Source of the DNA: Candidatus Latescibacterota bacterium
GTDB lineage: Bacteria > Latescibacterota > UBA2968 > GCA-2709665
Direction of reading: 5' to 3'
Assembly (NCBI GenBank): GCA_965248435.1
Contig: OZ252100.1
Coordinates: 4,914,102 to 4,978,101, forward strand
Length of the DNA stretch: 64,000 bases
Below are positions 6,796 to 53,025 of the stretch, piece after piece (the stretch's first letter is position 1; the number at the start of each line of letters is the position of its first letter). The position numbers and the translations under genes were made by a program. Below the pieces are notes generated by a model, which ran no database searches, had not been told where the DNA came from, and saw nothing but the letters and a program-made list of their open reading frames with translations.

Positions 6796-6859
6796 CGAGA
6801 CGCTCCAGCTGACGCGGATAAGCCGAGCCGCTGAGCATCACATAGGAATTCGCCAAACT

Positions 6860-7216: not shown

Positions 7217-7322
7217 ATGTCAGGCAAGATGAAGACCTAGGAATAGACCGAACATTCTCTACATCCACTCGCTTAGCCCGGGCGATATTCAAGATGAAAA
7301 TTCAAGTTCAACGGAGGAAAAG

Positions 7323-7739
7323 GTGAATGTTAACGAAGTTGTGCCGTTTTTCGCGGTGAGAGACATGGGGAAATCACTCGCGTTCTATGTCGATGGACTT
7401 GGGTTCGAAATGAAGACCAAATGGGAGGATGAAGGAGTGCTGAGATGGTGTCGCTTGCAGATCGGCGGCGCGGGATTGATGCTTCAGCAATTCAAGACGG
7501 AAGGGCACGATTCGTGGCAGTTCAGCGACAACAAAGGCGAAGGGGTCTCGATTTGTTTCTTCTGCGAAAATGCGGTCGAACTGTATCGGGGCCTCAAATT
7601 ACGTGGGATAGATGCATCGGAACCGGTCGTGGGCAACGGGTTGTGGGTAACGTCCGTGATCGACCCGGACGGATACAAGATGAGTTTCGAGAGCCCTACG
7701 GATGTCCCAGAAGAGACGGGACTATCGCAGATAGAATAA
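7323..7739 (+). CDS. VOC (glyoxalase/bleomycin-resistance) family protein
   Basis: 138 aa. 'FFAVRDMGKSLAFYVDGLGFE' is a typical VOC N-terminal motif. Confidence 0.6.
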   Translation: MNVNEVVPFFAVRDMGKSLAFYVDGLGFEMKTKWEDEGVLRWCRLQIGGAGLMLQQFKTEGHDSWQFSDNKGEGVSICFFCENAVELYRGLKLRGIDASEPVVGNGLWVTSVIDPDGYKMSFESPTDVPEETGLSQIE

Positions 7740-7760
7740 GTCATCAAGGAGATCTGGCGT

Positions 7761-8216
7761 ATGCACGTTTACCTATCCGGTGAAGTCCACAGCGACTGGC
7801 GATCTGAGATCGTCGACGCCTGCAAGTCAGAGCAGTTGCCTGTCACCTTCACGGGTCCGGTGACCGACCATGGCCTGTCAGACAGCGTTGGCGCCGACAT
7901 TCTGGGGGAAGAAACGGACGCATTCTGGGGCGATCACAAGTCGGCTAAGATCAATGCGATACGCATACGGACGATGATCGAGCAGGCGGACCTTGTCGTC
8001 GTAAAGTTCGGCGACAAATTTCGACAGTGGAATGCGGCCTTCGATGCGGGCTATGCGGTCGCAAAGGGAAAGCCGGTGATTGTGCTCCATCCGGACGATC
8101 TTCGTCATCCGCTCAAGGAGGTCGACGCGGCGGCCATGGCTGTGGCAGAGACGCCGCAGCAAGTCGTGGAGATTCTCAAGTACGTCGCTGCGAAGCAGGA
8201 GAAAATCGATTCCTGA
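7761..8216 (+). CDS. YtoQ family protein (nucleoside 2-deoxyribosyltransferase-like fold)
   Basis: 151 aa. 'MHVYLSGEVHSDWRSEI' matches the YtoQ N-terminal signature. Confidence 0.65.
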   Translation: MHVYLSGEVHSDWRSEIVDACKSEQLPVTFTGPVTDHGLSDSVGADILGEETDAFWGDHKSAKINAIRIRTMIEQADLVVVKFGDKFRQWNAAFDAGYAVAKGKPVIVLHPDDLRHPLKEVDAAAMAVAETPQQVVEILKYVAAKQEKIDS

Positions 8217-8791
8217 TGAGCCATTTCATTCTATCCCAGATATTGGCCGCTTTCGCCTTCGCGTGCGGCATGATCTCGTATCAGTTCAAGGAGAGACGTT
8301 CCATACTGCTCTGGATGTTCGGCTCTGCCAGCTGCAACGCGAATCATTTCTATTTTCTGGGCAGGCCAGGTCCGGCGTGTATTGCTCTCGTGGTCGGCGC
8401 CCGATCTCTTGTTTCCGCCTTCAGTATAAACCAAAGCCTGATGGTTCTGTTTCAGGGCCTTACTGTCGTCGGATTCTTCCTGACCTATCAGAATTCGTTG
8501 AGCTATCTCGTCCTGTTCGCCGGACTTGTGGCGGGATATGCGAGCTTCCAGCAGAGTGACAGAAAGATCCGCATCCTGTTCCTGCTGTGCGGGTTGATGT
8601 GGTTGACGCACAACCTGCTGGCCGGGTCCCCGGTCGGCTCGTTGATGGAGGCCACGTTCGTAACAAGCAATCTGATCGGCTACTGGCGTTTCTATCACCG
8701 CGGCAGATCGATCGACTCTGCGGACGATCAGGGAATGAAGCGGGACGGCGAGACTGATGTGCGCGTGGATGTTCGTGTTGGGCACGGGTGA
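8216..8791 (+). CDS. YgjV-like inner membrane protein
   Basis: ATG overlaps the ytoQ stop (TGATG). Multi-pass hydrophobic protein. The longer listed ORF from 8027 overlaps ytoQ and is unlikely. Confidence 0.5.
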   Translation: MSHFILSQILAAFAFACGMISYQFKERRSILLWMFGSASCNANHFYFLGRPGPACIALVVGARSLVSAFSINQSLMVLFQGLTVVGFFLTYQNSLSYLVLFAGLVAGYASFQQSDRKIRILFLLCGLMWLTHNLLAGSPVGSLMEATFVTSNLIGYWRFYHRGRSIDSADDQGMKRDGETDVRVDVRVGHG

Positions 8792-8829
8792 GAAGTGATT
8801 AAGCTCTGGCGAGAGCGACTGGATTAGGG

Positions 8830-9315
8830 ATGACGAGATTGGGTTTGGTCGTCGCAGCTATGCTCGGTCTGCTTGTCGGTCTGGGGGGCTTTGCGTTTCA
8901 TTATGGGGAGGGGCTTTCCTATTTCAGCAAGGACCCAGCCGCGTGCGCGAACTGTCACATCATGCAGCCTCAGTATGATTCCTGGCAAAAGGCCAGCCAT
9001 CACACGATGGCCACCTGCGTAGATTGCCATCTTCCTCACGACTTGATTCCAAAGTGGGTTGCAAAGGCTGAAAACGGATTCTGGCATTCCAAAGGATTCA
9101 CCTTTCAGGATTTTCATGAACCGATTTTCATTCGAAAAAGTAATCAGATGGTACTACATGACAATTGCCTCCGTTGCCATTCCGAATTTGTGCGAGAATC
9201 AATACTAACAACCGATGCGATCAACTGCGTACATTGTCACCGGTCCGTTGGCCATGGAGAAACGGTGGGACTCGGAAAGTTTCAGGCCGTTGATCTTGGG
9301 TCGACCAAACAATAG
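8830..9315 (+). CDS. nrfH: cytochrome c nitrite reductase small subunit NrfH (NapC/NirT tetrahaem quinol dehydrogenase)
   Basis: N-terminal membrane anchor and four CxxCH motifs (CANCH, CVDCH, CLRCH, CVHCH). Directly upstream of nrfA. Confidence 0.8.
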
Positions 9316-9333
9316 GCAATAGGATGAATAGTC

Positions 9334-10776
9334 ATGAACCGCATTAGATCACTCGCGGGTTACGGTGTAGTCATTGTGGTTGTCGGGACAGCCAGTGCTT
9401 TGGTCACGGCTCTGATCATGAATATCTTCGAGCGAAAGACCGAAGCGTTGAACCCGTACGTGCGCCTTGTGGAGGTGGGGGAAGATGATACCGACCCCAA
9501 GAAGTGGGGTGTTAATTGGCCCAAGCAGTTCGACTCCTACCAGCTGACAGCCCTCGCCACGCGTACTCGCTTTGGGGGACACGGCGGCAGCGAAGCGCTT
9601 CCGGAAGAGAAGATCGAGCGCGATCCGTGGCTTAAGCGAATGTTTCTGGGCTACGCCTTTTCCATCGACTACCGGGATCATCGTGGTCACGCCTACATGC
9701 TGCACGACCAGGAGGCGACCGAACGTCTGACCAAGCCCCAAACGGGTTCCTGTTTGCATTGTCATGCATCCGTCATGCCCTTGTATCGGGAGCTGGGTGG
9801 AGGCGACGCCATTGCGGGCTTCGACATGACCTACAAGATGTCTTATCAGGAGCTGAACACCAGGCTGCACGAGAGTGGCCATGCTCACGCTGTTTCCTGT
9901 GTTGATTGCCACGATCCCAGGACAATGGAACTGCGAATCACGCGTCCGGGATTCATTAGGGGAATTCAAGCTCTCGCCGAATCCGAAGCCCTCTTGCCAC
10001 AGATGCCCTCAATCGAACGCTGGCGTGACACGAATCGGAAAGCGCCTTACAACCCAAATCTCGTGGCCACGCGCACGGAAATGCGTTCTTTCGTCTGCGC
10101 TCAATGCCACGTGGAATACTACTGTTCCAGTGCAATGCCACTTGAGTTCCCCTGGAGCAATGGGCTTCGCGTCCAGGATGAAGAAGCCCACTGGAACGAA
10201 ACCACCTTACCCGACGGATCTCGATTTTACGACTATAAGCACGGTGAGACGGGCGCCGAGATTCTCAAGGCCCAACATCCGGAGTTTGAGTTGTGGTCGC
10301 AGGGGATTCACTCTCGATCGGGTGTCGCGTGCGCGGATTGTCATATGCCATATCAACGCGATGGAGCGACCAAAGTTTCAGACCACTGGGTACGAAGTCC
10401 GTTACTCAATGTCAACCGCGCGTGCCAGATTTGCCACCATGTCGAGGAAAAGGAGATCATTGCTCGGGTAGGTGCCATTCAGGAGCGAAACTTCAATCTC
10501 CTCCAACGCGCTGCCCAGGCGCTGATGGATCAACTCGATGCGATCCAGGCCGCCAAGCAGGCCGGTGCCACTGATACTCAATTGCACGAGGCCCTTGAAC
10601 TCCAGCGCAAGGCGCAGTGGCGCCTGGACTTCATTGCCGCAGAAAACTCGATGGGATTTCATGCCCCTCAGGAAGCGGCGCGGATCCTTGGTGAAGCGGC
10701 TGATTATGCCCGCCAGGGCCAGGTAGCTGCACTCATAGCAAAGGGATCTGCTGCGATCGACAGCAAGCCCGAGTAA
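9334..10776 (+). CDS. nrfA: ammonia-forming cytochrome c nitrite reductase NrfA (pentahaem)
   Basis: 480 aa with a signal anchor and five CxxCH motifs (CLHCH, CVDCH, CAQCH, CADCH, CQICH). The first haem motif is CxxCH rather than the canonical CxxCK. Confidence 0.8.
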
Positions 10777-10789
10777 GGTCTATTCTAAA

Positions 10790-11614
10790 CCATGGTAAGC
10801 GACCGCGATATCTTCTTCTTCGACCTGCGCGGGTATCTGTTGCTGGAACAAGCCCTGTCGGCCCAGGAAGTCGCCCAACTGAACAGCGATTCTGGACGAG
10901 GCACCTGAACTCAAGCCTGGAGAGTGGTGGGGCCACGTACACGCGCATTGGTATGACGACCACGACGGGCTGAACCTTCAGCAGATTTACGAAGCGGGTG
11001 AGCCGTTCGAACGGCTCATCGACCATCCGTCCTGGATCGACAAGGTCAAATGTTTCGTGGGTGGGGAGGGCACGTTCGACTGGAATCACGGACCGTTGTT
11101 CATCGACGAAAACTTCGCCAACTTTCGTGGGCCGGGCGAAGCGATCGGCATGCATTCGGGTGGACATCTCGGCTCGTTGCGTAACCAGTTTCGCGTTAAG
11201 AACGACAAGTTTCATTGCGGCCAGATCAACGTGCTTATGGCTCTGACGGACATCGGTCCAGGGGATGGCGGCACGCTGATCATCCCCGGTTCGCACAAGT
11301 CCAACTTCGCCCACCCGGACTTCGAGCAGGTTCGTATGCGCGCCGAACGTGCCGGCGACATTCCGGAGGGGGCCCTGGAATTCCACGTGAAGGCCGGCGA
11401 TGCCCTGCTCTTTGTCGACTCGATCTGTCACGGTTCGGCCAGGCGCGTCAACCCGGGCCGGCGGCGCACGGTCGTCTACCGCTATGGTCCGTCGTGGGGC
11501 AACTTTCGGCACAACTACGATGTCTCACAGGATTTGCTGGCGCGCCTGACGCCTGAGCGGCAGCAGATCGTAAGACCCCGTTCCGCCTGGCCGCCGGAAA
11601 CACCATCGGGGTGA
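10790..11614 (+). pseudogene. PhyH-family dioxygenase interrupted by a single-nucleotide frameshift
   Basis: The N-terminal frame 'MVSDRDIFFFDLRGYLLLEQALSAQEVAQLNS' hits a stop at about 10895. The protein continues in the -1 frame as 'AILDEAPELKPGEWWGH...' into ORF 11057..11614, which carries the 'GTLIIPGSHK' motif. One missing nucleotide near 10890 restores a single ~270 aa protein. Confidence 0.5.
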
Positions 11615-29425: not shown

Positions 29426-30692
29426 AAAGAAACCCTTTCCCATCGCGTATGGCCGGGGCGAGCTCCCGCTTCGGATCGATCCTGAGCTCGCCAGGGCCTT
29501 GAGGCCGGTCTCCCGGCCGGCCCTTTTGAACGCCCAGGGGCGATTCCAGGAGGCCTGTCGGCATCCGGTAGAGACACCACCCCTTCGAGGGGTCGTCGGT
29601 CCTGGCGACCGGGTGGTGATCGTGACGTCTGACAAGACCCGCCCGGTCCCGAACCGGCTCCTGATTCCCTGGATCCTGGAGGAGATTCCCGTCCCCGACG
29701 ACAAGGTTACGGTGCTCCTCGGAAACGGGTCTCACGGCGCCAATTCTCCCGACGAGATTACGGAGATGTTTGGCGAGGCGGTGGCGGAGCGGGTGGAGAT
29801 ACGCAACCACGATGCCTTCGATCCGTCGCAGAACAGAAACGTCGGAAAGACGGGCGATGGGACCGAGGTCTGGATGGACAGGGTTTACTTGGAGGCGGAC
29901 AGGCGGATCGTCGTAGGATTTATCGAGCCGCACTTCTTCGCGGGGTTTTCAGGCGGTGGAAAAGGGGTCGTCCCTGGCGTGGCGGGTATCGATACGATCC
30001 TGTCGCTTCACCGCGCAGACCTGATCGCACATCCAAAGAGTACGTGGGGCGAGCTGGAAGGGAATCCTATTCAGAATGAAATTGCGGATGCCGTATCCCT
30101 CGCGCCGCCTGACTTTATGGTGAACGTCACACTCAACTCGGAGAAAGAGATCACCGAGTTCTTCGTCGGGGATTATCAGGCCGCCCATCGGCAGGGGTGT
30201 TCCTCGGTAAAGGCGTCGGCGATGGTTCCGGTGTCGGAACCGGTCCCGATCGTGGTGACGTCGAACGGCGGGTATCCACTCGATCTGAACCTGTATCAGA
30301 CGGTGAAGGGCATCTCCGCTGCCGACAGGATCGTGGAAAAGGGGGGGACGATTCTTGTGGCGAGCGAATGCAGCGACGGGGTCCCGGATCACGGCAATTT
30401 CGCTGAATTGATGCGAAGCGGCACGTCCCCGAAGGAGGTGCTCCAGTGGGTCCACGCGCAGGATCGCCCCGTTCAGGACCAGTGGCAGGCGCAGATCCTG
30501 GCCGGCATCCTGGAAAGGGTCGAGGTGATCCTGTATTCAGGTCTGGCACCCGGGGAGGTCGAAGGGTGTAAGCTCGGCTCGACGGACGATCTGGAGGCAT
30601 GCCTCGACAGCCGACTGGCGCGCGCCGCGAATCCATCTGTCGCCGTTCTGCCCTACGGACCTCTGACCATACCCTACTTAGAGGGAAAGTAA
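29418..30692 (+). CDS. LarA-like nickel-pincer (NPN) cofactor-dependent racemase/epimerase (DUF2088 N-terminal domain)
   Basis: ATG at 29418 (MSKKKPFPIAYGRGELP) overlaps the upstream stop. LarA-like N-terminal domain with conserved His/Lys positions. Confidence 0.65.
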   Translation: MSKKKPFPIAYGRGELPLRIDPELARALRPVSRPALLNAQGRFQEACRHPVETPPLRGVVGPGDRVVIVTSDKTRPVPNRLLIPWILEEIPVPDDKVTVLLGNGSHGANSPDEITEMFGEAVAERVEIRNHDAFDPSQNRNVGKTGDGTEVWMDRVYLEADRRIVVGFIEPHFFAGFSGGGKGVVPGVAGIDTILSLHRADLIAHPKSTWGELEGNPIQNEIADAVSLAPPDFMVNVTLNSEKEITEFFVGDYQAAHRQGCSSVKASAMVPVSEPVPIVVTSNGGYPLDLNLYQTVKGISAADRIVEKGGTILVASECSDGVPDHGNFAELMRSGTSPKEVLQWVHAQDRPVQDQWQAQILAGILERVEVILYSGLAPGEVEGCKLGSTDDLEACLDSRLARAANPSVAVLPYGPLTIPYLEGK

Positions 30693-30715
30693 CGGCATCT
30701 GGAAATCGAGAAAAA

Positions 30716-30769: not shown

Positions 30770-31011
30770 GGGTAGAAGTGGGCCTGGTTTTGGAAAGGTT
30801 TTTGGAAAGGTTTCTACTCAACGTAGTCAATGAGGTGATCGTAGCTTTGTGGGATCAGATGCCCGTAGAAGTCCTGAGTGATTGTAACGCTGGCGTGCCC
30901 AAGCCAAGCACTCACGATCTGGATACTCACCTTCCCCGAGGACAGAAGGTGGGCTGAAAACGTGTGACGAAGCATGTGCCAGTGTCCTTTCATCCCGCGC
31001 CGACGACACAC
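30770..31011 (-). pseudogene. tyrosine recombinase (phage-integrase type) C-terminal fragment
   Basis: Only box II and the catalytic tyrosine region remain ('WHMLRHTFSAHLL...LGHASVTITQDFYGHL'). No N-terminal domain. It abuts the IS3 remnant. Confidence 0.5.
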
Positions 31012-31039
31012 GGCCTTGAAGTGAATCGCTTTCCGGAGG

Positions 31040-31620
31040 CTCGTTTAGTTGAGTCCAGCCAGCATTGGCCGGGCTTCCTGCTCGTGGTAGTGTAGCCGTT
31101 CGAGCTCGACGGGTGGGATATCCCCGATGGGCCCCAGAGTCGTCTGTTGTTGAACCAGTCTACCCACTCGAGTGTCGCATATTCAACCTGATCGAGGTTC
31201 CGCCAGGGCCCTCGTCGACGAAGTCCACAATCACTTCGGTCGGCGGTCGAGCTCCGCCTGTGCGAAATAGGCCGACGCCTTGCGAAGGATCTCGTTCGCC
31301 CGCCGCAACTCTCGGTTCTCGCGCTGCAGTTCTTTGAGTTGCGCCCGTTCGCTGCTTGTCACGCCGCCTCGACGTCCCGTGTTCACCTCGGTCCGACGTA
31401 CCCACTTCCGGAGCGTCTCAGCCGCGCAGCCAATTTTGCCCGCGATCGAATAGATGGCCTCCCACTGGGAGGCGTGTTCGTCAGTGTGCTCGAACACCAT
31501 CCGAACCGCCCGTTCTCGAACCTCTGGAGAATACCTCTTCACGTTTGTCATGACTCTATCCTCTCAAGAAATAGAGTCTCCGTCAAGTCCGGGGCGATTC
31601 ACCGCGCGCACGGTTGTGTT
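31040..31620 (-). mobile_element. internally deleted IS3-family element (orfA plus the last ~55 codons of orfB)
   Basis: orfA at 31231..31551 is intact. Immediately downstream, a different frame encodes 'EYATLEWVDWFNNRRLWGPIGDIPPVELERLHYHEQEARPMLAGLN*', the conserved OrfB C-terminus. The DDE core is missing. Confidence 0.6.
31231..31551 (-). CDS. IS3-family transposase OrfA
   Basis: 106 aa, '[22 protein letters not shown]...'. HTH plus leucine zipper. Confidence 0.65.
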
Positions 31621-33108: not shown

Positions 33109-33771
33109 TTACTCCTCGAAGGGAAAGTAGTCGAGGACGTCGTACTCCCACACATTGGTGGGAAAGATTACGACCAGTTCGGCCAAGTCCTCGCCCAAGT
33201 TCTTGAATGAGTGGGGGACCATAGGAGGAATATTGACGATATAGGGGGCTTCCAATGTGAACACCGAATCGCCCAGCGCGTAAAGGATGGTCCCCTCCAA
33301 CAGGACGTGCGCTTCTTCCCCTACGTGCGTGTGCATCGGAGGTGCACCTCCGGGGGCCGTATAGGTGATGCCCACGGTCAGGTTCTGATAGCCGTGCCGC
33401 TGCCCTTCCATGACGTGCACATATTCGCCCGGCCCTGGGTTGATGACGACGAGTTCTTTCTTCTCAAGAGCAAACTCGCCCACCAATGTCATAGCCGGGG
33501 ACTTGAAGTCACCGGGGATCCTGCGGGTTTCGATAATGCCGTGGGGGTGATGTTGTGCATGCAACTGCTTTCTCGCTTCATCAATCGAGCTGATTAGTTC
33601 TCCGTGTGTGATCGTCTGTCCTAGCTTGGCGTCCTCGGGTGAATACGTAACAGTCGGTTCCGGTGGCAGCGTGGAGGATTTATCTTTCGCGTCGGACGGC
33701 TCTAAGTAAGCCAAGCCAACGATGCCTATGAGGATGAAGCTAACGACAATACGTGGTGTATACCTGTGCAT
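33109..33771 (-). CDS. secreted cupin-2 domain protein (cassette-like)
   Basis: Signal peptide 'MHRYTPRIVVSFILIGIVGLAYLEPSDA'. Cupin motifs 'HTHVGEEAHVLLEGT' and 'PPMVPHSFKN'. Confidence 0.55.
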   Translation of the reverse strand: MHRYTPRIVVSFILIGIVGLAYLEPSDAKDKSSTLPPEPTVTYSPEDAKLGQTITHGELISSIDEARKQLHAQHHPHGIIETRRIPGDFKSPAMTLVGEFALEKKELVVINPGPGEYVHVMEGQRHGYQNLTVGITYTAPGGAPPMHTHVGEEAHVLLEGTILYALGDSVFTLEAPYIVNIPPMVPHSFKNLGEDLAELVVIFPTNVWEYDVLDYFPFEE

Positions 33772-33821
33772 GGTACCCTCCCTTTAGGGTATGGTGAAAG
33801 CACGGTCCTGGACCGCAATGG

Positions 33822-33908
33822 CAGGTAACGTTCTCGGCACCCACGAACCCGCGCAGCGGGTTGGGCGGAAGCCCGAATGGGCTGAAGCCGTGGGTGCTCG
33901 TGTTAGCG
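33822..33908. other. attC-like recombination site E1 (imperfect palindrome TAAC...GTTA)
   Basis: gcaggTAACgttctcGGCACCCACGaacc...GTGGGTGCtcgtGTTAgcgg. Internal inverted repeat GGCACCCACG/CGTGGGTGC. Lies between the cupin and APH cassettes. Confidence 0.55.
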
Positions 33909-33940
33909 GATGTCGCCGACGGAGCTGGCCTGGGAGGCTA

Positions 33941-34846
33941 TTAGAGTTTCGGCATAGGCCATTCGGCGATTGGCCTTCCCGACCAGGTTGACCGACTGAA
34001 GAATCGTCCACCCGCACGGTTGATGGAGCCGAACCACGCCTGGATCGCAATTCCCCAGAAATGCTCAAAGGATCTATCCTTCAGATTCAGATCAGCACGG
34101 TCGTAATGCGACAGGACCTCATCTACGAACACCTCGCCGTACACCCAGAAACCATAGAAGTCCTTGGCCGGGTCAGTGATTTCGATGTCGCCCCAGTCTA
34201 TGATCCCGGTCAGCTTTCCTGAAGAAGGATCGTGGTAGATGTGCTTGTACCATAGATCATTGTGAGCCAGCACTGGTACGAATGCGTGATCAATGCTCTC
34301 ACTTCTTTCGATCCAGGAACCGAAGACATCCCGAACCTCTGGCTCAAGTTCGTCGGCCCGATCTGCGAAGACCTTCTTGGCCTCCGACCGGTAAAACAGG
34401 GACCTGTCGCCATCCACCACACCAACACTCCGAGCCTCCGAGACTGGATAACTGTGAAGTTCGTTGAGGAAGACGCCAAGCCTGCTTGCCGCTTCTGCCC
34501 TCCTGAATCTTGGTAGCCTGGAGAATCGCCAAGGTGAGAGCCGCGTTCCTTGAATTGCCTTATATCCAGCGAAATCCGACGCGCTGGGAATAAAGGTGTA
34601 ATCCGGAACTGGGATGCTATTAATCTCACGCCTGATGGCGCTGAGCACCGTCCGCTCCCGCGGAAGGCTCAGCCCTGTGTCCGCTACATCATTCAGAAAA
34701 CGAAAGGCAATCCCGTTGTCTAGCAGGATCATTACATGATCAGGGTATTTGTGGGTCTGAGCTCTCCGGTATTTTGACCACCTGAGTTTGGGGAACGAGT
34801 CCTTGATCCTCTGCAGATAGTAGTTTGTATCGTAGGGAGTCGTCAC
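33941..34846 (-). CDS. aminoglycoside phosphotransferase (APH) family kinase, cassette
   Basis: Brenner motif 'LAHNDLWYKHI' and 'IDWGDIEITDP'. Start set at the in-frame GTG at 34846. The listed ORF start at 34915 lies inside element E2. Confidence 0.6.
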   Translation of the reverse strand: MTTPYDTNYYLQRIKDSFPKLRWSKYRRAQTHKYPDHVMILLDNGIAFRFLNDVADTGLSLPRERTVLSAIRREINSIPVPDYTFIPSASDFAGYKAIQGTRLSPWRFSRLPRFRRAEAASRLGVFLNELHSYPVSEARSVGVVDGDRSLFYRSEAKKVFADRADELEPEVRDVFGSWIERSESIDHAFVPVLAHNDLWYKHIYHDPSSGKLTGIIDWGDIEITDPAKDFYGFWVYGEVFVDEVLSHYDRADLNLKDRSFEHFWGIAIQAWFGSINRAGGRFFSRSTWSGRPIAEWPMPKL

Positions 34847-34892
34847 GAGATCTCCAGGATCAAAGTGGACCCTAACACAAAGGCGGCGATTT

Positions 34893-34980
34893 CCGCTAAC
34901 GTTCTCGGCACCCACGAACCCGCCGCAGGGGGTTGGGCGAAGGCCGGATGGCCTGAGCCGTGCACGGTCGTGTTAGAGGC
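34893..34980. other. attC-like recombination site E2
   Basis: ccgcTAACgttctcGGCACCCACGaacc...CGTGcacggtcgtGTTAgagg. Same architecture as E1 and E3. Confidence 0.5.
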
Positions 34981-35024
34981 CGTGCGGCCCGGGGCAGGAA
35001 GGGGTTCTCAAGACCTGATCAAGA

Positions 35025-36482
35025 TTAAACCGACTCCGGACCAATCTCTATGGGCAAGCTAATCGTTACTGTCGTACCTTTTCCTACCTCGCTCTCCATC
35101 TTGATCCTCCCCTTGTGATCCTGGATAATCCTGTAGTCCGTAGACAATCCTAAACCCATTTTCACCCGAAGATCGGTGGCCTGAAAATCAACATCGAAGA
35201 TGCGTTCTAACTGCTCCGGTGGAATTCCCACGCCCGTGTCGCTGATCCGGACACAGACCTTGTCGTCCTCCTCAAAGGTGCTGACTCTTATTTCCCCAGT
35301 TTCCTCGATAGCCTGGAGCGCGTTCTTGAGCAGGTGCATGAAGACCTGGTTCAGTTGTCCGGGAGAACAGTAGATCGGCGGGATGTTCCCGTATTTCTTG
35401 ACCACGGTGATGTTTTCGCCTATCCGGTTTTGTAGCAGCGTCAGGGCGCTGTCGATCCCCGCGTGAAGGTCTACCACCTGGAACTCGGCTTCGTCCAGTC
35501 GTGCGAAATTTCGCAGACTGCCCACAATGCTGCTCAACCGTTCGGCACCGCTTGCCATCACCCGGTTGGCATCGGCTATTGCCTTGAACACCGATTGAAT
35601 GGTCCGATTATCTTTATACTCTCCGGGAAAGGTCATCTCCAGCGTTTGTTTCAGTTTACCTATAGCCCGTACCTGAGTATCGTGCATACTCGTAATAGCG
35701 CCAAGAGGCGTATTCATCTCGTGAGCCACACCGGCTATCAGACTACCCAGAGAGGCCATTTTCTCCTGCATGATAAGCTGACTCTGTGTCTCTTTGAGCT
35801 GATGCAGGGCATCTTCCAGGGCTCGGTTCTGTTCTTCCAGATACTGGAAATCGAGGGTTCGGAGATACGCCAGCGACAGCGCGTCGGTCCATTCCTCTAT
35901 TTTGATCAAGTGTTCTGGATCGGTTCCCCGGTGGCGAATCCCGATCCAACCGTACTCAAACGGCACGTTGGTAATAACCCATCCTTCACTCCCAAAAAAC
36001 GGCAGTTGTCGGTCGAAGCCCATCAGCTCGTGAAAAGGCTGCATTTCCGCTTTGTCCTCCTCCGAACTCCGCGCAATAGACCAGACCTTGCCCTCGCGCC
36101 ACTGACCCAGATCCTCCTCCCAATCAGCCGTAATGGGGACTTCCAATGCCGAAACGGTGGTTGTTTCGTCGATCTCCTTGAGTTCGGGAGAGGTCCACGA
36201 GATGCCATATTGCCGGGGATTTTCCAGGGCGGCGTACCACAGAATGCGGCCTTTGTCCTCGTCGACGAAGAAAAAGCCACACCCTGGTGCCTCTATATCC
36301 AGCCGCGAAAGCTCCTTGAACATCACCAGGATCACCTGGAGAAGGTCCTCCCTGGAACGCATGGACAGCACTTCGACCCGTATGCGTTCGATTGTTTTCT
36401 CCTGGGCTCGTTGTTGCCTAAGTTCGGCTAGTTCAATCCGGAGTTGCTCTTTGGACATCTCCATGTCTCTCATGCTAAACAA
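35025..36482 (-). CDS. cytoplasmic sensor histidine kinase (GAF-like N-terminus, HisKA, HATPase_c), cassette
   Basis: H-box 'AGVAHEMNTPL'. N, G1 and G2 boxes present ('LLKNAL', 'DTGVGI', 'GLGLS'). No TM segments. Confidence 0.75.
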   Translation of the reverse strand: MFSMRDMEMSKEQLRIELAELRQQRAQEKTIERIRVEVLSMRSREDLLQVILVMFKELSRLDIEAPGCGFFFVDEDKGRILWYAALENPRQYGISWTSPELKEIDETTTVSALEVPITADWEEDLGQWREGKVWSIARSSEEDKAEMQPFHELMGFDRQLPFFGSEGWVITNVPFEYGWIGIRHRGTDPEHLIKIEEWTDALSLAYLRTLDFQYLEEQNRALEDALHQLKETQSQLIMQEKMASLGSLIAGVAHEMNTPLGAITSMHDTQVRAIGKLKQTLEMTFPGEYKDNRTIQSVFKAIADANRVMASGAERLSSIVGSLRNFARLDEAEFQVVDLHAGIDSALTLLQNRIGENITVVKKYGNIPPIYCSPGQLNQVFMHLLKNALQAIEETGEIRVSTFEEDDKVCVRISDTGVGIPPEQLERIFDVDFQATDLRVKMGLGLSTDYRIIQDHKGRIKMESEVGKGTTVTISLPIEIGPESV

Positions 36483-36502
36483 CCTTGTTTTGGGCCGGAT
36501 GG

Positions 36503-36597
36503 CCTATAACGTTCCCGGCACCCACGAACCTGGCGAAGCCAGGTTGGGCGGAAGCCCGAATGGGCTGGAGCCGTGGGTGCTCGTGTTAACTGCAGTT
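36503..36597. other. attC-like recombination site E3
   Basis: ccTATAACgttcccGGCACCCACGaacc...GTGGGTGCtcgtGTTAACtgcagttgcgc. Confidence 0.55.
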
Positions 36598-36612
36598 GCG
36601 CAGACCGCTTTG

Positions 36613-37575
36613 TCAGATCTTCGCGATAATGGAATCTAAGTAATCGTCGAATCGACAAAACAGGACTTCCTGACCTGGGTCTTTTATGCCGTATTCAGTC
36701 CAAGGAGGATAAAATCCTGGCTTCGGAATCGCCCAATCCAGAATAGAATCTATCTCCCAGAATGAGTGATACAGGTAATGTGGAGCAGCGACCTTGTGGT
36801 ATTTCTCTCGGAAACTGCCTGCTATTTCGGGGCCGAACATCGTGGCAAGATTAATCTGACAATGAGCTACGTCCACGTTTGCGGGTCCCAGACAAGCGCC
36901 AACCCAATCGACGATCCCGGTCAGCTTTCCAGATACCCATAGGATGTTAACTGGATGGTAGTCGCGGTGGAGAAACACCTCGTCATAGGGAGGCGATTCT
37001 TCGAGTCTAATGTTGATTGCCTTCTCCCAAAGTTCAGATCGTTTCGACCAAGGTGGTACACAAAGTGTCTCGACTTCGGTATAGCTCTGGTAGTGCCATC
37101 TTACACCATAAACCGCGATACTATGAATAGTCGCCAAGGTCTCCGCTAGTTGGTCGAGCCAATGGTCCAAATTGGCCGGCTTTATGTTCACAGTTCCATC
37201 CAAACAGCTCATTAGAAGAGCGGGGTATCCGAAAACCGAAGTGTCTGCACTGTAATCGAGCAGATGAGGCGTTGGAAGGTCGGCAGAACTCAGCAATCGA
37301 AGCGCAGCCGCCTCCCGCACGATTGGATCTGGCTCCCTACCAAGCCGTTCCTCATCCACATAGAGACGTAATACATACCTTCTAGATTCACCTGCGACAT
37401 CTGCTTCCAGCAAGAAAACGGGTGAAGCGGGTCCGCAGATCAGTCTTTTGCTACTGGTCAATTTCGCGCTAGCGCCAATTGCTGAACTGATCCAGTCAGT
37501 AGCCGCACTATTGAGAATGAGTTCCGAACTCACAGCGACTCCAGAATCAAATAAGAAGGGGTTAGGGCTGCGCAA
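36613..37575 (-). CDS. APH-family phosphotransferase, cassette
   Basis: 'FLHRDYHPVNILW' and 'GIVDW' catalytic and Mg-binding motifs of the APH/choline-kinase fold. Confidence 0.6.
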   Translation of the reverse strand: MRSPNPFLFDSGVAVSSELILNSAATDWISSAIGASAKLTSSKRLICGPASPVFLLEADVAGESRRYVLRLYVDEERLGREPDPIVREAAALRLLSSADLPTPHLLDYSADTSVFGYPALLMSCLDGTVNIKPANLDHWLDQLAETLATIHSIAVYGVRWHYQSYTEVETLCVPPWSKRSELWEKAINIRLEESPPYDEVFLHRDYHPVNILWVSGKLTGIVDWVGACLGPANVDVAHCQINLATMFGPEIAGSFREKYHKVAAPHYLYHSFWEIDSILDWAIPKPGFYPPWTEYGIKDPGQEVLFCRFDDYLDSIIAKI

Positions 37576-37674
37576 TTGCAGTTAACGGTCTAGGCACTTG
37601 CGAACCCCGGAGGGGTTTGCCGAGGGCCGTCAGGCCCGAGCCGCAAGTGCCTTGTTAACTGCTGTTGCGCCCGG
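37566..37674. other. attC-like recombination site E4
   Basis: GGGCTGCGCAATTGCAGTTAACggtctaGGCACTTGCGaacc...CGCAAGTGCCttGTTAACTGCTGTTGCGCCCGGG. The extended terminal palindrome matches the ends of E3 and E5. Confidence 0.55.
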
Positions 37675-37677
37675 GTG

Positions 37678-38541
37678 TCAATAGAGCCTCTTCACCTCTT
37701 GGAGTCGAGTCAGCACATGTCTCTCGTAGGCCGTTTTCAGTCGCAATGAATCCCACGGTTTCCCCCGTCTCTTGATAGAGTCCACGACTACCGAGCCAAA
37801 ACCGAATGCCATGTAGTAGGGGAGATCTGCGGCGTCTACGCCGAAGAACCTGAGATCTCTGAGCCGAGAAAATAGCCGAGACGCAGGCCAAATAGGATTG
37901 TGGAGCAGGACTCCCACTAGAATCTCCTTTGTGCCGAAAAAGGCTTGCTCAAAATCAATAAATCTGTGGATGGCCCCGTTTTTCAGGAACAGGTTCTCTG
38001 GATTCCAGTCCAGCTTGATCAGCAGGTCTTCTGAAATCTCAACCCTGGCCACCGAGTCGCAGATGTCCTGAAAAATCGGACCGCAATCTCCGACATCCTT
38101 TGCCAGACGAGATAGGTTGTCAATCAAGGTCCCGAGATTTTCCTCTGCCCCAATCCCTTCGTAGTATTCGCCTTTGAGTTCGAGAGTTGGCTCTGGCCCC
38201 CTGAACAGACTTATGAGTTCATCGACGTAGTTATCGGTCAACTCGAGTAGCTCATCAGAGGGAAGTGGGCTGATGTCGCTCATCCGATCTCCCTCTGCTC
38301 GTTCGATAACGATGTAGTCATTGACACTCAGATCAATGAGTTTGGGGATTAGCTTTGACTCTTTGTAATGAGACAAGAATCCTACTTCACGCCTGAATTT
38401 GCCTGCTCTTTCCCCGTTTCCGCTGTAAGTCTTCTTCACAGACTTTCCATCGGAGAGGAACTCGATTTGGCTCTTCCTGCCTTGAGGCGATTTATGCACG
38501 GCAGATTCTCGCTTCTTTAGAGTCTTTCCCAATGGGCGCAA
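37678..38541 (-). CDS. protein-kinase-like phosphotransferase (APH/Kdo-kinase-like), cassette
   Basis: 'IKLDWNPENLFLKNGAIHRFIDFEQAFF' contains a D..N catalytic loop and a DFE Mg-binding motif of the PKL fold. Confidence 0.5.
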   Translation of the reverse strand: MRPLGKTLKKRESAVHKSPQGRKSQIEFLSDGKSVKKTYSGNGERAGKFRREVGFLSHYKESKLIPKLIDLSVNDYIVIERAEGDRMSDISPLPSDELLELTDNYVDELISLFRGPEPTLELKGEYYEGIGAEENLGTLIDNLSRLAKDVGDCGPIFQDICDSVARVEISEDLLIKLDWNPENLFLKNGAIHRFIDFEQAFFGTKEILVGVLLHNPIWPASRLFSRLRDLRFFGVDAADLPYYMAFGFGSVVVDSIKRRGKPWDSLRLKTAYERHVLTRLQEVKRLY

Positions 38542-38695
38542 TTGCAGTTAACGTTCTTCAGGTTTACGACGCCTGCTGTCCCGAAGGGCTGGCGCGGCAT
38601 TTGCGCTTCTCACCAAATGACGTGACAGAAGCAGGTGTGCCCCAAGGGCCAAGCGGAACGAAGTGGAGCGCAGCGTAAACCTGGTGTTAACAGAT
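38536..38695. other. attC-like recombination site E5 (long variant, ~160 bp)
   Basis: GGGCGCAATTGCAGTTAACgttcttcaGGTTTACG...CGTAAACCtggtGTTAACagatg. Inner inverted repeat GTTTACG/CGTAAAC. Confidence 0.5.
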
Positions 38696-38936
38696 GGCAC
38701 GCGCCGGGGTGGTTGTGGGGGCGGGCCAGGACGGCCCGCGTAGGGGTGCTTTTTCTGATTTTGACTCCAAGTTTTTAAATAAAGCGTGCTGTCATCAACA
38801 TCGTTCTCTTTATGTTTTATCTTCCAATTTAACGTGCCGATAAGCGGCGGCGATTAGCCGTCCGCTCCACTGGCTAGTTCGCCTCGACCTTCGTCCACCT
38901 GAAGAGCTGTCGACAGCTGACCCGTGTGCTCCGCCT

Positions 38937-39995
38937 TCACCACTGCACGCGGAGGCGCGTCCAACGGATGCCGCAGACGTCGTCCTCTACGCACCAATGA
39001 ACGGCAAGCACGATGTTGTCCTCAAGCAAAAGGCCCATCGGATAGCCGAACTGAATGAGCCCGATCTGCTCCTGACTGCTGACGTCCTCGGTAAGCTCAA
39101 GCCTTGACCGACCGTCGAACAGGGTGCCTTCGAACTCAAGCGACCAGCACGCGCCCGACACTCGGACCAGGCACATCTGTACGCTCTGGTCACCGAAGCG
39201 TCTGTTGTACAGCACGAGATACCGATCGTCCCCGAGCCAGATCGGGGTCATTGTCTGACCCTGGATACCGGTAGGGTACGGTCCTTCCCAACTGCGGCCG
39301 CCGTCGGTCGATACGCTAAACGCGTTCCTCAGGTCAGTGTCTCCCGCGAAGTCCTGGACCCACGCAATGGCCAGCATTTGTCCCGGTTCCGTCTCGATCA
39401 GCTTCTGCTCCAGATACCCGATGCCGGTGCCGGGGTCCTGGAAGACAGTATACATGCTCGGCCAGGTCGCCCCCTGGTCGGACGATTCGTGCAGCACCAC
39501 GCGCTCCCCGTAACGCCCGTCGTATAATGTCGCGGCCGGAGCGAGCCAGCGTCCGTCAGCGGTGACGACAATCGGGTTCGAGATCTCATAGGGCCCCGCA
39601 ATCTGAAAGGGAATAACTTCGGGAAAGGACCACGTATGGCCGCCGTCCGTCGAGCGGCACAGCACGGGTTCACAGACGCGACCCCGTCCGCCGTCCGCGA
39701 TGCTCAGCTTCTGGTCGCGCTGGCCGTACGCGAGGATCGTTCCGTCCGCGGTGCGGCTGAGGCGCAGATGGTTGGTCTTCACCGGGCTCTCGTCCCGCTT
39801 GAGGACGACGCCCAGGTACGACCAGATGAAGCCCCCATCGGCAGAACGGGCGCAGTGCGTGTCGCCTTGCGCGTGAGCTCCGCCGCCGCGACTGAACCCG
39901 CAGACGATGTCGCCGCTATCTAACCGTACTAAGGTGGGAAACGCTGAGTCGCCGCGGTCGATGTGGCCGGTACCGAGAATCTCGATAGTGGACAT
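38937..39995 (-). CDS. BNR/Asp-box repeat sialidase-like beta-propeller protein, first cassette
   Basis: Three S-x-D-x-G-x-T-W Asp-boxes (STDGGHTW, SSDQGATW, STDGGRSW). Confidence 0.65.
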   Translation of the reverse strand: MSTIEILGTGHIDRGDSAFPTLVRLDSGDIVCGFSRGGGAHAQGDTHCARSADGGFIWSYLGVVLKRDESPVKTNHLRLSRTADGTILAYGQRDQKLSIADGGRGRVCEPVLCRSTDGGHTWSFPEVIPFQIAGPYEISNPIVVTADGRWLAPAATLYDGRYGERVVLHESSDQGATWPSMYTVFQDPGTGIGYLEQKLIETEPGQMLAIAWVQDFAGDTDLRNAFSVSTDGGRSWEGPYPTGIQGQTMTPIWLGDDRYLVLYNRRFGDQSVQMCLVRVSGACWSLEFEGTLFDGRSRLELTEDVSSQEQIGLIQFGYPMGLLLEDNIVLAVHWCVEDDVCGIRWTRLRVQW

Positions 39996-40099
39996 GGAAT
40001 CCTCCAGGCATCTGCGAACTATTTCCTATACGGAAAAATCGCCGAAGAAAGCTATCAATGGTTTTCTTGGCGGCCAGGACGGCCGCCGGTTGTGGTTTT

Positions 40100-40250
40100 G
40101 AATTTGATGCGTGCTTTCTGTTAACTTCTGCATTCGCGCCCCATCGGCGCAAATACCACCCGATAGGGCAAATAATGCGCACTGCGCAGATCCTGCCAAT
40201 AATATAGATAATGCGCCTTATTTCGTGAATGCTATTTATAGGAGACACCA
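40100..40250. other. candidate attI-like region, with a GTTAAC core at 40120-40125
   Basis: GTTAACTTCTGCATTCGCGCC resembles the 3' ends of E3 and E4 (GTTAACTGC(A/T)GTTGCGC). Lies between the intI remnant stop and the first cassette. Confidence 0.35.
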
Positions 40251-40251
40251 A

Positions 40252-40536
40252 TTAACCGGAACCTGTCTCCCTCTCCATCGGGTCGTCCAGGGGATTCCTA
40301 ATCTGGGCGAGGTCCCTCCGGGTCATGTGAGTATGGATTCCCGTCGTTTTTGAACTTTTGTGGCTCAGGAGCTCCTGGATGTATCGGAGGTCCGTGCCCC
40401 TTTCAAGAAGATGGGTCGCAAATGAGTGTCTGAGGGTGTGTACGGACACCGGCTTCTCAATACCGGCCCGTTTGTAAGCTTGGTCGAAGATTTTCTGCAC
40501 GGATTGGATCCATAAAAAAATACCGAATGCCTAAGC
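40252..40536 (-). pseudogene. intI: integron-integrase-like (IntI) tyrosine recombinase, 5'-truncated remnant
   Basis: The frame opens right after a stop at ~40536. It encodes '...[51 protein letters not shown]...QIRNPLDDP'. Box II, the catalytic tyrosine region and the C-terminal 'R(S/N)PLD' motif resemble the IntI 'GVRSPLD' ending I recall rather than XerC/D endings. Confidence 0.5.
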
Positions 40537-40854
40537 TCCCAGAGCCCGTGACATTCGGCTTATTTGTTGCCGGTCGAACGCCACAGGCTGCACTCATAGG
40601 CACCTACAAATTCCACGACCGCTACGGACTCCGATTCGGGTTCCGAAGTCACTACACGATGCGACCGGGGCCTTGCTCCTGAACCCGGATGGACGCATGT
40701 GGACAACTCAGAACTTGCAGACGGCGGCAGATTTTGTAACTTTGGAGCGAAGCCGCGCACGGAGGAAGAAGAGATGACGAAGGGGAAGAGGGCGCGGATC
40801 GCGGTCAAAAATAGATAGAAAACGGAATAATCCCTTACTTAGAGGAGAACTGAC

Positions 40855-41700
40855 GTGGTCACTCGCTCAGACCCTCGACTCAGCCGCTTCGATCCGCTGC
40901 CTCAGATCCACTACTTCGATGATTTCGACGTGGGTCTGCAGGGATGGACAGCGCTGATCGGGAACTACGAGGAGACGCTGGATTCCGTGCTGCCCGGATA
41001 CCGGGACTTCGGACCTCCCATGCTCAGCAATGCCACGATGTGGGACACCGGATCGGCCGGTGCCTTCGACGGCACATATGCCATGAAGCTGGTTACGAGG
41101 CCGAAGTCGGGGTGCATGACGACCGCGGTAAAACGTGTGACCTGGCGCCATCAAGGCCCGATTCAGCTGGAGGCCTATGTGACGTTCAAACCGGAGGCGT
41201 CGGAATTGCGGCTTTCCGAGCTGGACGTGAGGTCGTTCGGCGTTTTGTTCGACCTGCACGACGCCACGCGGCGGGTGATGCCGCACCTGCGTTATCTGAA
41301 TGCGCTGGACGGACAGCCGGTCGCTCGCTGGCAGTATAAGAAGGAGCTGGAGACCGCCGAGGAGATCGGGACGTCGGGGAAGACCCGATCCCATCATCAC
41401 CTGGCGCCGGAGGGCTGGCTGGACGTGCCGGGCGAGCCCCAGCCCCTCTGTTACAACGAGATCGCGACGAAGCAGAACTGGCACTATATAAAGGTAGGGT
41501 TCGATCTGGCGTCGATGACCTACCTGAGTTTCCAGTGCAATGACCGGGAGTATGATGTCTCCGAGATCGCCCCGATGTCTATGCCTGCGTGGTCGAATCT
41601 CTGGTGTATGCTGAATGTAGTCTTCTTTTTGGAGACGGATCTGGACAAGAGGGCGTTTCTGTATGTGGATTCGGTGTTGGTTTCGGGGGAGACGGACTGA
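40855..41700 (+). CDS. hypothetical protein
   Basis: GTG after an AGGAGA ribosome-binding site. 281 aa. Translationally coupled (TGATG) to the following ORF. Confidence 0.4.
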   Translation: MVTRSDPRLSRFDPLPQIHYFDDFDVGLQGWTALIGNYEETLDSVLPGYRDFGPPMLSNATMWDTGSAGAFDGTYAMKLVTRPKSGCMTTAVKRVTWRHQGPIQLEAYVTFKPEASELRLSELDVRSFGVLFDLHDATRRVMPHLRYLNALDGQPVARWQYKKELETAEEIGTSGKTRSHHHLAPEGWLDVPGEPQPLCYNEIATKQNWHYIKVGFDLASMTYLSFQCNDREYDVSEIAPMSMPAWSNLWCMLNVVFFLETDLDKRAFLYVDSVLVSGETD

Positions 41701-51974: not shown

Positions 51975-53025
51975 CAGCTGGATTCAATGACTAAGTGCAA
52001 CACTTGGACTTGAAGACTTCAGCTGGTGTTTTGAAGTTAAGACATTTTCTTGGTCGGTTGTTGATCCGGTTCTGAATTTTCTTTAACTCGTGTTTGCTGA
52101 CCTTTGAGAAGTCTGTCTTCTTGGGGAGGTATCTGCGGACCAGACCGATAGCGTTTTCCACAGCGCCTCGCTCCCAGCTGTGGAACGGTTTGCAGAAATA
52201 GGATTTGGTGCCAAGCACCTCGTTGACCCGTTGATGTTGGCCGTTTTCGGATCCGTTGTCATATGTGATGCTCTTCCTCATGTGGGGAGGATGTCGCCCA
52301 AGGCGTCGATTAATCGCTTCGGCGACCTCCGAGGGTCCGTTCTTTGCCAGCTTAGCCAGGTGTAGGTATCTCGACGATCGCTCAAGACAAGCGCCAACGG
52401 CCTGTTTGCTCTCACGAGAGATGATGGTGTCGGATTCCCAGTGGCCAGGTTGTTTCCGTTTTTCGATGTAACGGGGACGTCGATCGATCGAAATACGGCC
52501 TGGAATGTGGCTTTCCCGGTGTTTTCGGGTATGCCACCGCGGCTTTCGTTTTTTGTGAGCTCGGGATAAGCAAGCAACCAGATCCCGCTGCTTGTGCACC
52601 TTTGGATCGTAGATATACTGGTAGATGGCTTCGTGGCTGATACCCGCGCTCGGACGCTCCTCGGGAAGCCTCCCAGCGATCAACTCGGGAGACCATCCTT
52701 GCTTGAGTTTGGTCTCGACATATCGCCGGATAACCGGATTCTTCAGCCGTTTCCGCTTGCCGGCCTCCCGCTTACGTTTCTCAGCCCTTCTGTGAGCCTG
52801 GAGGCCCGAGTAACTCTCAGCTATCGGGGACGGATTACGTTTCAACTCTCTTGAAATCGTGCTGGCGCTCCGGTCAAGGGCCTTGGCAATATCTCTAAGG
52901 CTTGCACCAGTGGCTCGACAAAGCGCAATCTGCTCGCGTTCGTCTATCGTAAGATGCTTGTAATTGTTTCCCATACACTTAGGATAGGACAGTTGCTACC
53001 CTAAGTGTTGCACTTCCTTATTGAA
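51975..53025 (-). mobile_element. IS30-family insertion sequence
   Basis: Low GC. Single transposase gene. Terminal inverted repeats share AAGTGCAACACTT(G/A)GG (left ~51975-52005, right ~52995-53025). Confidence 0.7.
51991..52974 (-). CDS. IS30-family transposase
   Basis: 327 aa. N-terminal HTH ('LTIDEREQIALCRATGASLRDIAKALDRSASTISRELKRN') and a DDE core ('WESDTI', 'ITYDNGSE'). Confidence 0.8.
   Translation of the reverse strand: MGNNYKHLTIDEREQIALCRATGASLRDIAKALDRSASTISRELKRNPSPIAESYSGLQAHRRAEKRKREAGKRKRLKNPVIRRYVETKLKQGWSPELIAGRLPEERPSAGISHEAIYQYIYDPKVHKQRDLVACLSRAHKKRKPRWHTRKHRESHIPGRISIDRRPRYIEKRKQPGHWESDTIISRESKQAVGACLERSSRYLHLAKLAKNGPSEVAEAINRRLGRHPPHMRKSITYDNGSENGQHQRVNEVLGTKSYFCKPFHSWERGAVENAIGLVRRYLPKKTDFSKVSKHELKKIQNRINNRPRKCLNFKTPAEVFKSKCCT

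Follow-up and report, generated by a model that had tools for sequence, protein, structure and literature searches.

Environmental integron arrays are regarded as the source pool of clinical resistance cassettes, and phosphotransferases are rare among the cassettes of mobile integrons. In one survey of mobile integrons, aphA15 and aphA16 were the only phosphotransferases among 54 aminoglycoside genes, all others encoding acetyl- or adenylyl-transferases (PMC11721406). Integron arrays with putative antibiotic-modifying enzymes are already known, as are attC clusters left without an integrase. Here we describe an array of this general kind in a 64,000-nucleotide stretch of contig OZ252100.1 of Candidatus Latescibacterota bacterium; this whole stretch is referred to below as the window. 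Between 33.8 and 40.1 kb, on the minus strand, the window holds a row of five cassettes, each consisting of one open reading frame (ORF) and one attC site, and their cargo includes three predicted kinases of the aminoglycoside phosphotransferase (APH) fold, designated APH1, APH2 and K3, and a soluble histidine kinase (HK).

The closest described systems each share part of this organization. The integrons of Treponema have an integrase that points towards the cassettes, an atypical arrangement that is also seen here (PMC3607928). CALINs, which are attC clusters without an integrase, are functionally like this array, although here a recognisable piece of the integrase gene and a core at the junction are still present. 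A further difference from the Treponema and CALIN comparators is the attC type of the window, which recurs in arrays of Latescibacterota-labelled genomes. With aphA15 and aphA16 of class 1 integrons, the kinases described here share membership of the APH family and residence in integron cassettes; those two genes, however, are APH(3')-type, mobile and proven to confer kanamycin resistance, whereas the present kinases belong to other branches, are chromosomal and are known from their sequences. In the literature searched, we found no paper that deals with integrons of Latescibacterota or with cassette-borne histidine kinases.

An earlier sequence-only reading of the window had described three divergent APH-type kinases and a cytoplasmic histidine kinase as successive cassettes, and had called APH enzymes classic mobile-integron cargo. 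That description is overstated, phosphotransferases being only two of the 54 aminoglycoside cassette genes surveyed (PMC11721406), and the element itself is chromosomal rather than mobile, a short array next to the stump of an integrase gene, with metabolic genes of ordinary kinds on either side. The cassette assignment itself stood up well, as set out below.

Results

Organization of the array

In the reading direction the cassettes encode a BNR-repeat protein, K3, APH2, HK and APH1, with core-to-core lengths of 1,572, 966, 1,076, 1,610 and 1,071 bp, respectively. The features of the island are as follows, all on the minus strand; R1 and R2 are covariance models introduced in the next section, and z compares folding energy with that of shuffled sequences.

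40252..40500, minus strand: integron integrase remnant, last ~82 codons, reading towards the cassettes (NCBIfam TIGR02249, E = 4e-25)
40120..40125, minus strand: GTTAAC core at the upstream end of cassette 1, likely the attI-side junction
38937..39995, minus strand: cassette 1 ORF, BNR-repeat (sialidase-like) protein, 352 aa (Pfam BNR_2, E = 2.7e-12)
38544..38698, minus strand: attC of cassette 1, long form of 155 nt that folds into one long hairpin (R2 28.4 bits, E = 4e-4; z = -3.4)
37678..38499, minus strand: cassette 2 ORF, K3, APH-fold kinase by structure model, 273 aa
37578..37666, minus strand: attC of cassette 2 (R1 91 bits, R2 79 bits; fold z = -6.8)
36613..37533, minus strand: cassette 3 ORF, APH2, APH-family kinase, 306 aa (Pfam APH 108.8 bits)
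36502..36597, minus strand: attC of cassette 3 (R1 93.6 bits; fold z = -3.0)
35025..36482, minus strand: cassette 4 ORF, soluble HK, 485 aa, start codon uncertain (HATPase_c 79 bits)
34892..34984, minus strand: attC of cassette 4 (R1 90.8 bits; free-energy z = -0.5, weak alone)
33941..34846, minus strand: cassette 5 ORF, APH1, 301 aa (Pfam APH 51.6 bits)
33821..33914, minus strand: attC of cassette 5, the last attC in the window (R1 98.6 bits; fold z = -3.7)
33109..33771, minus strand: cupin-domain protein beyond the last attC, membership of the array uncertain (Pfam Cupin_2, E = 2e-14)

The four kinase ORFs of the sequence-only reading are all present on the minus strand, at or near the positions that it gave. 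Public proteins identical to APH1 (P0072), APH2 and K3 exist, all three on one contig, and we take the likely starts of the three genes from the lengths of these proteins. The APH2 ORF extends over 36613-37575 and its identical public protein, 306 aa, corresponds to 36613-37533; for K3 the ORF extends over 37678-38541 and the identical protein, 273 aa, corresponds to 37678-38499.

The array shows the co-oriented alternation of an integron, ORF then attC, five times over, and a full-length IntI with its catalytic residues, as a complete integron would have, is absent. What is left of the integrase aligns with positions 242-313 of the 315-position TIGR02249 profile, its best NCBIfam match, and ends 130 nt upstream of the first core, on the same strand as the cassettes. 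None of the frames upstream of the stump shows an integrase-like continuation, and the start of a DUF6772 gene lies at 40855 on the opposite strand. The nucleophile motif of the stump reads TTGIHTHM, where the family consensus has a Tyr as the nucleophile. Since only the C-terminal stump remains, we regard the locus as a decayed chromosomal integron with an array that is now frozen. Transcription of the cassettes would have to start in the AT-rich spacer of ~130 nt that separates the stump from the first cassette, or else come from read-through. On the minus strand of this spacer, at 40172-40229, there are two sigma-70-like hexamer pairs where a cassette promoter would be expected.

Base composition sets the kinases apart from the host. 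The GC content at third codon positions (GC3) of the three kinases is 0.49-0.61, with APH2 at 0.49; core genes have 0.74-0.82, and the lower values of the kinases would fit a foreign origin. The BNR cassette ORF, at 0.78, is in the host core range.

The attC sites

Every gap between cassette genes holds an imperfect palindrome of ~90-155 nt, closed by ...TAAC / GTTA... and present in one orientation. Folded as single strands, three of the five sites are more stable than their shuffled versions in all or almost all cases (z from -3.0 to -6.8); of the other two, one is a borderline case (z = -3.4) and one is weak when judged by energy alone (z = -0.5). Six base pairs are kept through two-sided changes among the four short sites of the window, and the site of cassette 2 has compensatory changes in its inner stem relative to the other window sites.

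Two covariance models were built, R1 from the four short window sites and R2 from 26 sites including those of relatives. Both are specific to this attC type, so that their silence leaves other attC types possible. Scanned over the 64 kb, R1 finds exactly the four short sites, and R2 adds the long fifth site and nothing else. Pairing in the 26-site alignment reaches 87% of cells, compared with 72% for shuffles and 25-41% when the partners are slid; the 87% is flattered by the fitting of the alignment to the covariance model.

The boundaries of the cassettes agree with these sites. Each cassette opens with ~17-22 nt that can pair with the far arm of its own attC, as expected if the unit was once a circle closed at that point. 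In cassette 1 these are the 17 nt at 40109-40125, which show 88% complementarity to the far arm at 38686-38702. At the 40120-40125 junction itself, neither folding nor R2 found a full attC.

The placement of each of the four kinase genes in a cassette of its own is thus borne out by five attC sites that alternate with the ORFs. We are almost certain that these are attC-bounded cassettes of a decayed integron, and the sites are predicted to be substrates for recombination by an integron integrase. Ordinary REP-like intergenic repeats were considered as an explanation of the palindromes and were rejected, since the covariation, the remnant of the integrase and the exactness of the cassette ends all speak against them.

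Three divergent kinases of the APH fold

The proposal that the three kinases are divergent members of the APH fold holds for two of them by Pfam and for the third by structure model. Against PF01636 (APH; gathering cut-off 23.2 bits), APH1 scores 51.6 bits and APH2 108.8 bits, both above the cut-off, and K3 has no match; nor does K3 match any other family by sequence, those of NCBIfam included. The three are not paralogues, and BLASTP detects no similarity among them. All three are without hydrophobic segments, and the catalytic motifs are conserved across their families, the catalytic Asp being D197 in APH1, D191 in APH2 and D164 in K3. The families are rare, comprising 40 (APH1), 24 (APH2) and 66 (K3) clusters among 5.8 billion proteins.

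APH1 finds its best PDB match in APH(2'')-Id/IVa (E = 5e-22 over ~205 residues); the alignment includes the catalytic HNDxxxxH and IIDWGD motifs. The other characterised proteins to which it is significantly related are likewise all antibiotic kinases, namely APH(2'')-IIIa, the APH domain of AAC(6')-APH(2''), macrolide kinases, and viomycin and capreomycin kinases. The nucleotide-binding strand has an Arg, in AFRF, as in MphA. APH1 is a distant member of the APH(2'')/macrolide-kinase branch. It resembles APH(2'')-IVa/Id and -IIIa (PDB 4dtb, 3tdw) in size and in the HNDxxxxH and IIDxGD motifs; it differs from APH(2'')-IVa/Id in that its first 60 residues are unaligned, in its score (75 bits against a cut-off of 600 for the NCBIfam APH(2'')-Ie/IVa model) and in its neutral isoelectric point (pI). 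The Mph families are second-tier matches, with 20-30 bits over the catalytic half (PDB 5igh, 3e-6), far under their cut-offs of 500-650 bits; the Mph(E)/(G) model, for example, gives 30 bits against 500.

The APH2 family, with the conserved motifs HRDYHPVN (catalytic) and IVDW, has a different neighbourhood. Its profile is nearest to PDB 3dxp (4e-12) and to the ACAD11 kinase domain (1.6e-7), over ~210 residues, with antibiotic kinases far behind. These ACAD10/ACAD11-type proteins and 3dxp are the nearest solved relatives, and the similarity is remote; APH2 is a stand-alone protein of 306 aa that lacks the dehydrogenase domain. The NCBIfam APH(3') model gives APH2 39 bits against a cut-off of 205.

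K3 was placed through its structure model (pLDDT 93.8, pTM 0.91), which has the APH fold and whose top Foldseek matches are APH(2'')-Ib, APH(4)-Ia, APH(3')-IIIa and MphH. The model has the bilobal shape, the helical substrate lobe and the conserved catalytic and metal-binding residues of the APH/choline-kinase fold. In an alignment of 39 members a Lys, a Glu and Asp-x4-Asn are invariant and the Asp in IDFEQ is nearly so. By its modelled fold, K3 thus appears to be a kinase of the APH type whose family escapes detection by Pfam. Its structural similarity is flat across antibiotic and metabolite kinases. No NCBIfam resistance model matches K3.

The view that these genes might be resistance determinants therefore receives no backing from the curated models, with APH1 at 75 of 600 bits, APH2 at 39 of 205 and K3 without a match. 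The same holds for housekeeping functions. No kinase reaches the cut-off of any metabolic or housekeeping kinase model (homoserine kinase, 29 bits against 271), and the best relatives of APH1 and K3 are themselves cassette-borne, so that the three are not simply housekeeping kinases with a conserved context outside integrons. They may instead act on small molecules of some other kind, as the sequence-only reading also suggested.

Relatives of the kinases and cassette mobility

Relatives of K3 occur in 12 genomes labelled Candidatus Latescibacterota, in several Pseudomonadales/Gammaproteobacteria and in one Caldilineaceae. The attC type of the window, in the orientation of the genes, recurs in six of the Latescibacterota loci (relative-bearing loci carry L numbers below); some of the K3 relatives in these genomes sit directly between attC sites. 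An attC lies directly upstream of the K3 relative in L011, L012, L013 and L018, and in L013 ORFs and attC sites alternate over at least ten units. In L001/L015 and L003/L017, R1 and R2 find no attC of this type. The K3 relative of L014, L016 and L001/L015 keeps the same neighbours, including another, weakly APH-like gene immediately upstream and a glyoxalase, with no attC between them, which suggests an older array that has become fixed. Among the K3-anchored loci no relative of HK, APH1 or APH2 was found. The attC type in common and the nearest K3 relatives both point to a Latescibacterota-like host for the window.

The most direct evidence of movement comes from APH1. Two arrays of one metagenome, L025 and L026, share a segment of 1,472 bp (7851-9322) with 100% identity, and this segment carries an APH1 relative (61% identity). 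The match between the arrays starts and stops exactly at GTTA cores and the neighbours on both sides differ, which is the signature of integrase-mediated cassette movement. In L025, a co-oriented N-terminal integrase fragment (Phage_int_SAM_4) lies upstream of the array.

R1 and R2, within their single attC type, are silent in L004-L006, in L027-L028 and in 80 metagenome loci with APH2 relatives. In one APH2-relative locus, L109, an 85-nt spacer is attC-like by eye and gives no match to the models. A different context is seen in L004, where five different APH-family genes with gaps of 14-48 nt, followed by a LanC-like gene, make up a tight operon at 4981-11183, preceded by a MacB/FtsX transporter and a toxin-antitoxin pair. 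This operon might serve to modify peptides or natural products. Groups of several neighbouring APH genes are a recurrent finding in this lineage. At least two families of the APH fold, those of APH1 and K3, are thus circulating as genuine cassettes in an uncultured lineage.

Cargo of related arrays

The 58 co-oriented ORFs of related arrays include five methyltransferases, three GNAT acetyltransferases, and two each of chloramphenicol-phosphotransferase-like, APH and ANT(2'')-like genes and of MFS transporters; beta-lactamase-family genes occur in further related arrays. As a whole, these arrays abound in enzymes that transfer methyl, acetyl, nucleotidyl and phospho groups, and also in glyoxalase-fold proteins and MFS pumps. 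Individual cassettes that resemble antibiotic-modifying enzyme families lie at L013 2121-2678, L025 10843-11946 and L026 14786-16147, the families being ANT(2'')-like (PF10706), beta-lactamase and chloramphenicol-phosphotransferase/Zeta-like P-loop kinases.

Among non-anchor ORFs of the related arrays, two of 53 match Pfam APH. At this rate three or more APH genes in five cassettes would be expected about 5 times in 10,000, and at a rate of 10% in less than 1% of cases; this binomial estimate is post hoc, the locus having been selected because of its three kinases.

A soluble histidine kinase as cassette cargo

The description of HK as a cytoplasmic kinase with GAF-like, HisKA and HATPase parts, and with no response regulator in the window, is upheld by its motifs, by its hydropathy and by a receiver search. 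Pfam gives HATPase_c 79 bits and HisKA 21 bits, the latter under its 27-bit cut-off. The motifs are intact (H-box HEMNTP at 254, KNA at 386, DTGVG at 415, GLGL at 443), and the kinase core scores 167 bits against AtoS and 129 bits against ZraS. The protein lacks a membrane segment: its Kyte-Doolittle hydropathy, taken over 19 residues, peaks at 1.04. A hidden Markov model built from four receiver-domain sequences finds no receiver domain in any window ORF.

The GAF domain assigned in the sequence-only reading is recovered as a fold by the structure model and not as a Pfam match: residues 1-234 match nothing in Pfam, GAF included, even at E <= 1. The model of this N-terminal domain (pLDDT 94.4) has GAF domains as its top PDB matches (3k2n, 6oap, 5w10, 1ykd and 4g3v; probability 1.0, target-normalised TM up to 0.63), the proteins named being 3k2n, a cyanobacteriochrome, Lcd1, CyaB2 and Nlh2. 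A PDB profile search with the HK alignment is dominated by matches to the kinase core and gives no information on the sensor. The N-terminal domain is thus GAF-like as judged by structure prediction only. HK shares the plan of soluble GAF histidine kinases with an AtoS/ZraS-type core, namely a sensor, a DHp domain with its H-box, and HATPase, and departs from them in that its GAF-like domain is invisible to Pfam, it is borne on a cassette and no regulator lies nearby. The sensor domain (window 35781-36482) belongs to a family of 1,427 representatives, seen in proteins P0136-P0285. In proteins of 2,000-3,900 aa this domain often occurs in up to 16 tandem copies, and these proteins carry histidine-kinase or SpoIIE phosphatase outputs.

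The closest retrievable relative of HK, at 61% identity, adjoins response-regulator genes rather than APH genes and does not lie in an array. HK is an orphan kinase carried as a cassette and, if expressed, would have to act through a response regulator whose gene lies in another part of the genome.

Other features of the island and the window

The cupin gene beyond the last attC is co-oriented with the array and encodes an N-terminal hydrophobic segment (maximum hydropathy 1.99 at residue 8); R2 finds no attC of the window's type downstream of it. The BNR cassette has near-identical GC-rich stem-loops (GGCCAGGACGGCC), with adjoining CCACAACC, near both of its ends, at 38725-38745 and 40068-40086; the GGCCAGGACGGCC stem-loops are found in no other cassette of the window.

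Ordinary metabolic genes flank the island (LarA, a sugar-phosphate isomerase-like gene, dehydrogenases, PfkB and NrfHA). A 26-nt direct repeat, 77% identical, at 30669-30694 and 40830-40855, brackets the whole ~10-kb low-GC island, with one copy coinciding with the extreme end of the LarA gene and the other immediately preceding the start codon of DUF6772. The repeat may represent a target site that was duplicated when the island integrated, or it may have arisen by chance. The far end of the island (30814-31551, minus strand) carries an ORF for the helix-turn-helix (HTH) protein of an IS3-type transposase (31231-31551), a remnant of the second IS3 ORF and a second tyrosine-recombinase C-terminal fragment (30814-31011, minus strand).

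Elsewhere in the window there are an IS30-type transposase (HTH_38 + rve) at 51991-52974, minus strand, and an NrfH/NrfA cytochrome c nitrite reductase pair at 8830-10776. The genes of a lower-GC stretch at 6-14 kb are ordinary ones, and no attC of this type lies among them. Scanning of the 64-kb window with Rfam and for tRNAs found no RNA genes.

Discussion

The reading that we favour, with a probability of roughly 60%, is that of a decayed integron whose cassettes encode compound-modifying kinases. Each cassette would have been captured independently by recombination at the G|TT core, and each kinase would transfer phosphate from ATP or GTP to a hydroxyl of a small molecule; the adaptive role would most likely be to modify or inactivate bioactive compounds of the environment, for example antibiotics or other natural products. 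Judged from their sequences, independently captured small-molecule kinases are most likely what these genes encode, and there is a strong expectation that all three are active. Whether at least one of them protects against an antibiotic is a more tentative matter, to which we would give somewhat less than an even chance. APH1 is the best candidate for the modifying or inactivating role, because it belongs to the APH(2'')/macrolide-kinase branch. The argument for a detoxifying role is circumstantial: we favour such a role because the arrays fit a pool of small-molecule-modifying enzymes.

Several observations weigh against this interpretation. The scores of all the kinases against curated resistance models are far under the cut-offs, and no substrate is on record for the APH1, APH2 or K3 families. 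Known aminoglycoside kinases are acidic, and the computed pI of APH1 is 7.3. The APH2 profile is nearest to the ACAD10/11-type kinase domain and to Rv3168-like proteins, and ACAD10/11 are metabolic enzymes. One APH1 relative, at 63% identity, is not a cassette gene at all and lies in the tight operon of five APH kinases with a LanC-like gene; none of the 83 APH2-relative loci that were scanned holds an attC of the type that R1 and R2 detect. Lastly, promoter-like hexamers in the spacer are no commoner than in shuffles, and the integrase is destroyed.

Some of the same facts would suit a metabolic origin, in which the kinases act in the use or scavenging of sugars, amino-alcohols or hydroxy-acids and were captured to widen the substrate range of the host, without any relation to antibiotics. 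The closeness of APH2 to 3dxp and the ACAD11 kinase domain rather than to antibiotic kinases points this way, as do the occurrence of its relatives among ordinary chromosomal genes, the neutral pI of APH1 and the catabolic flavour of the neighbouring cargo (the BNR/sialidase-like protein and the cupin). We nevertheless judge it unlikely, if the most serious of the competing accounts, because the only significant characterised relatives of APH1 are APH(2''), Mph and capreomycin/viomycin kinases, related arrays hold other families that resemble antibiotic-modifying enzymes, and no metabolic kinase model is reached at its cut-off, homoserine kinase coming to 29 of 271 bits.

The four kinase cassettes might alternatively form one module, with HK tied to the compounds of the kinases, or with the kinases phosphorylating a peptide as in class V lanthipeptide synthetases. 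In favour of this, phosphotransferases make up the cargo of four of the five cassettes, the operon of five APH-family genes that ends in a LanC-like gene includes a relative of APH1, and multi-APH neighbourhoods recur. Each gene, however, has an attC of its own, the relatives occur singly and with differing neighbours, and K3-anchored loci are without relatives of the other three; the closest retrievable HK relative adjoins response-regulator genes and not APH genes, and the array has no precursor peptide, lyase or cyclase gene, which together make a module improbable. More improbable still is that the cassettes are anti-phage defence genes, as in many sedentary chromosomal integrons. Chromosomal integron arrays do hold defence systems, and some defence systems use kinases, but a comparison of the seven island proteins with the PADLOC models gave no match at E <= 0.01, and we reject this account for that reason.

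Conclusions

The finding of a decayed integron with putative compound-modifying kinase cassettes mainly adds well-documented members to a known kind of element. Of some novelty are a cassette-borne, circulating family with a modelled APH fold that standard domain searches (Pfam) and resistance searches both miss, the direct demonstration that a family of the APH(2'')/Mph branch is mobile within an attC type shared with Latescibacterota genomes, and a complete histidine kinase with a GAF-like sensor as a cassette, which is unusual cargo. It is doubtful that K3, and possibly APH1, will prove to be the founding member of an unrecognised family of antibiotic-inactivating kinases, hidden from Pfam and from resistance databases, that circulates as an integron cassette among uncultured soil and sediment bacteria. 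On that reading, integrons of the Latescibacterota type would stockpile diverse small-molecule kinases able to reach pathogens by cassette transfer. If any of these kinases inactivates a drug, it would represent a type of resistance that is invisible to current surveillance.

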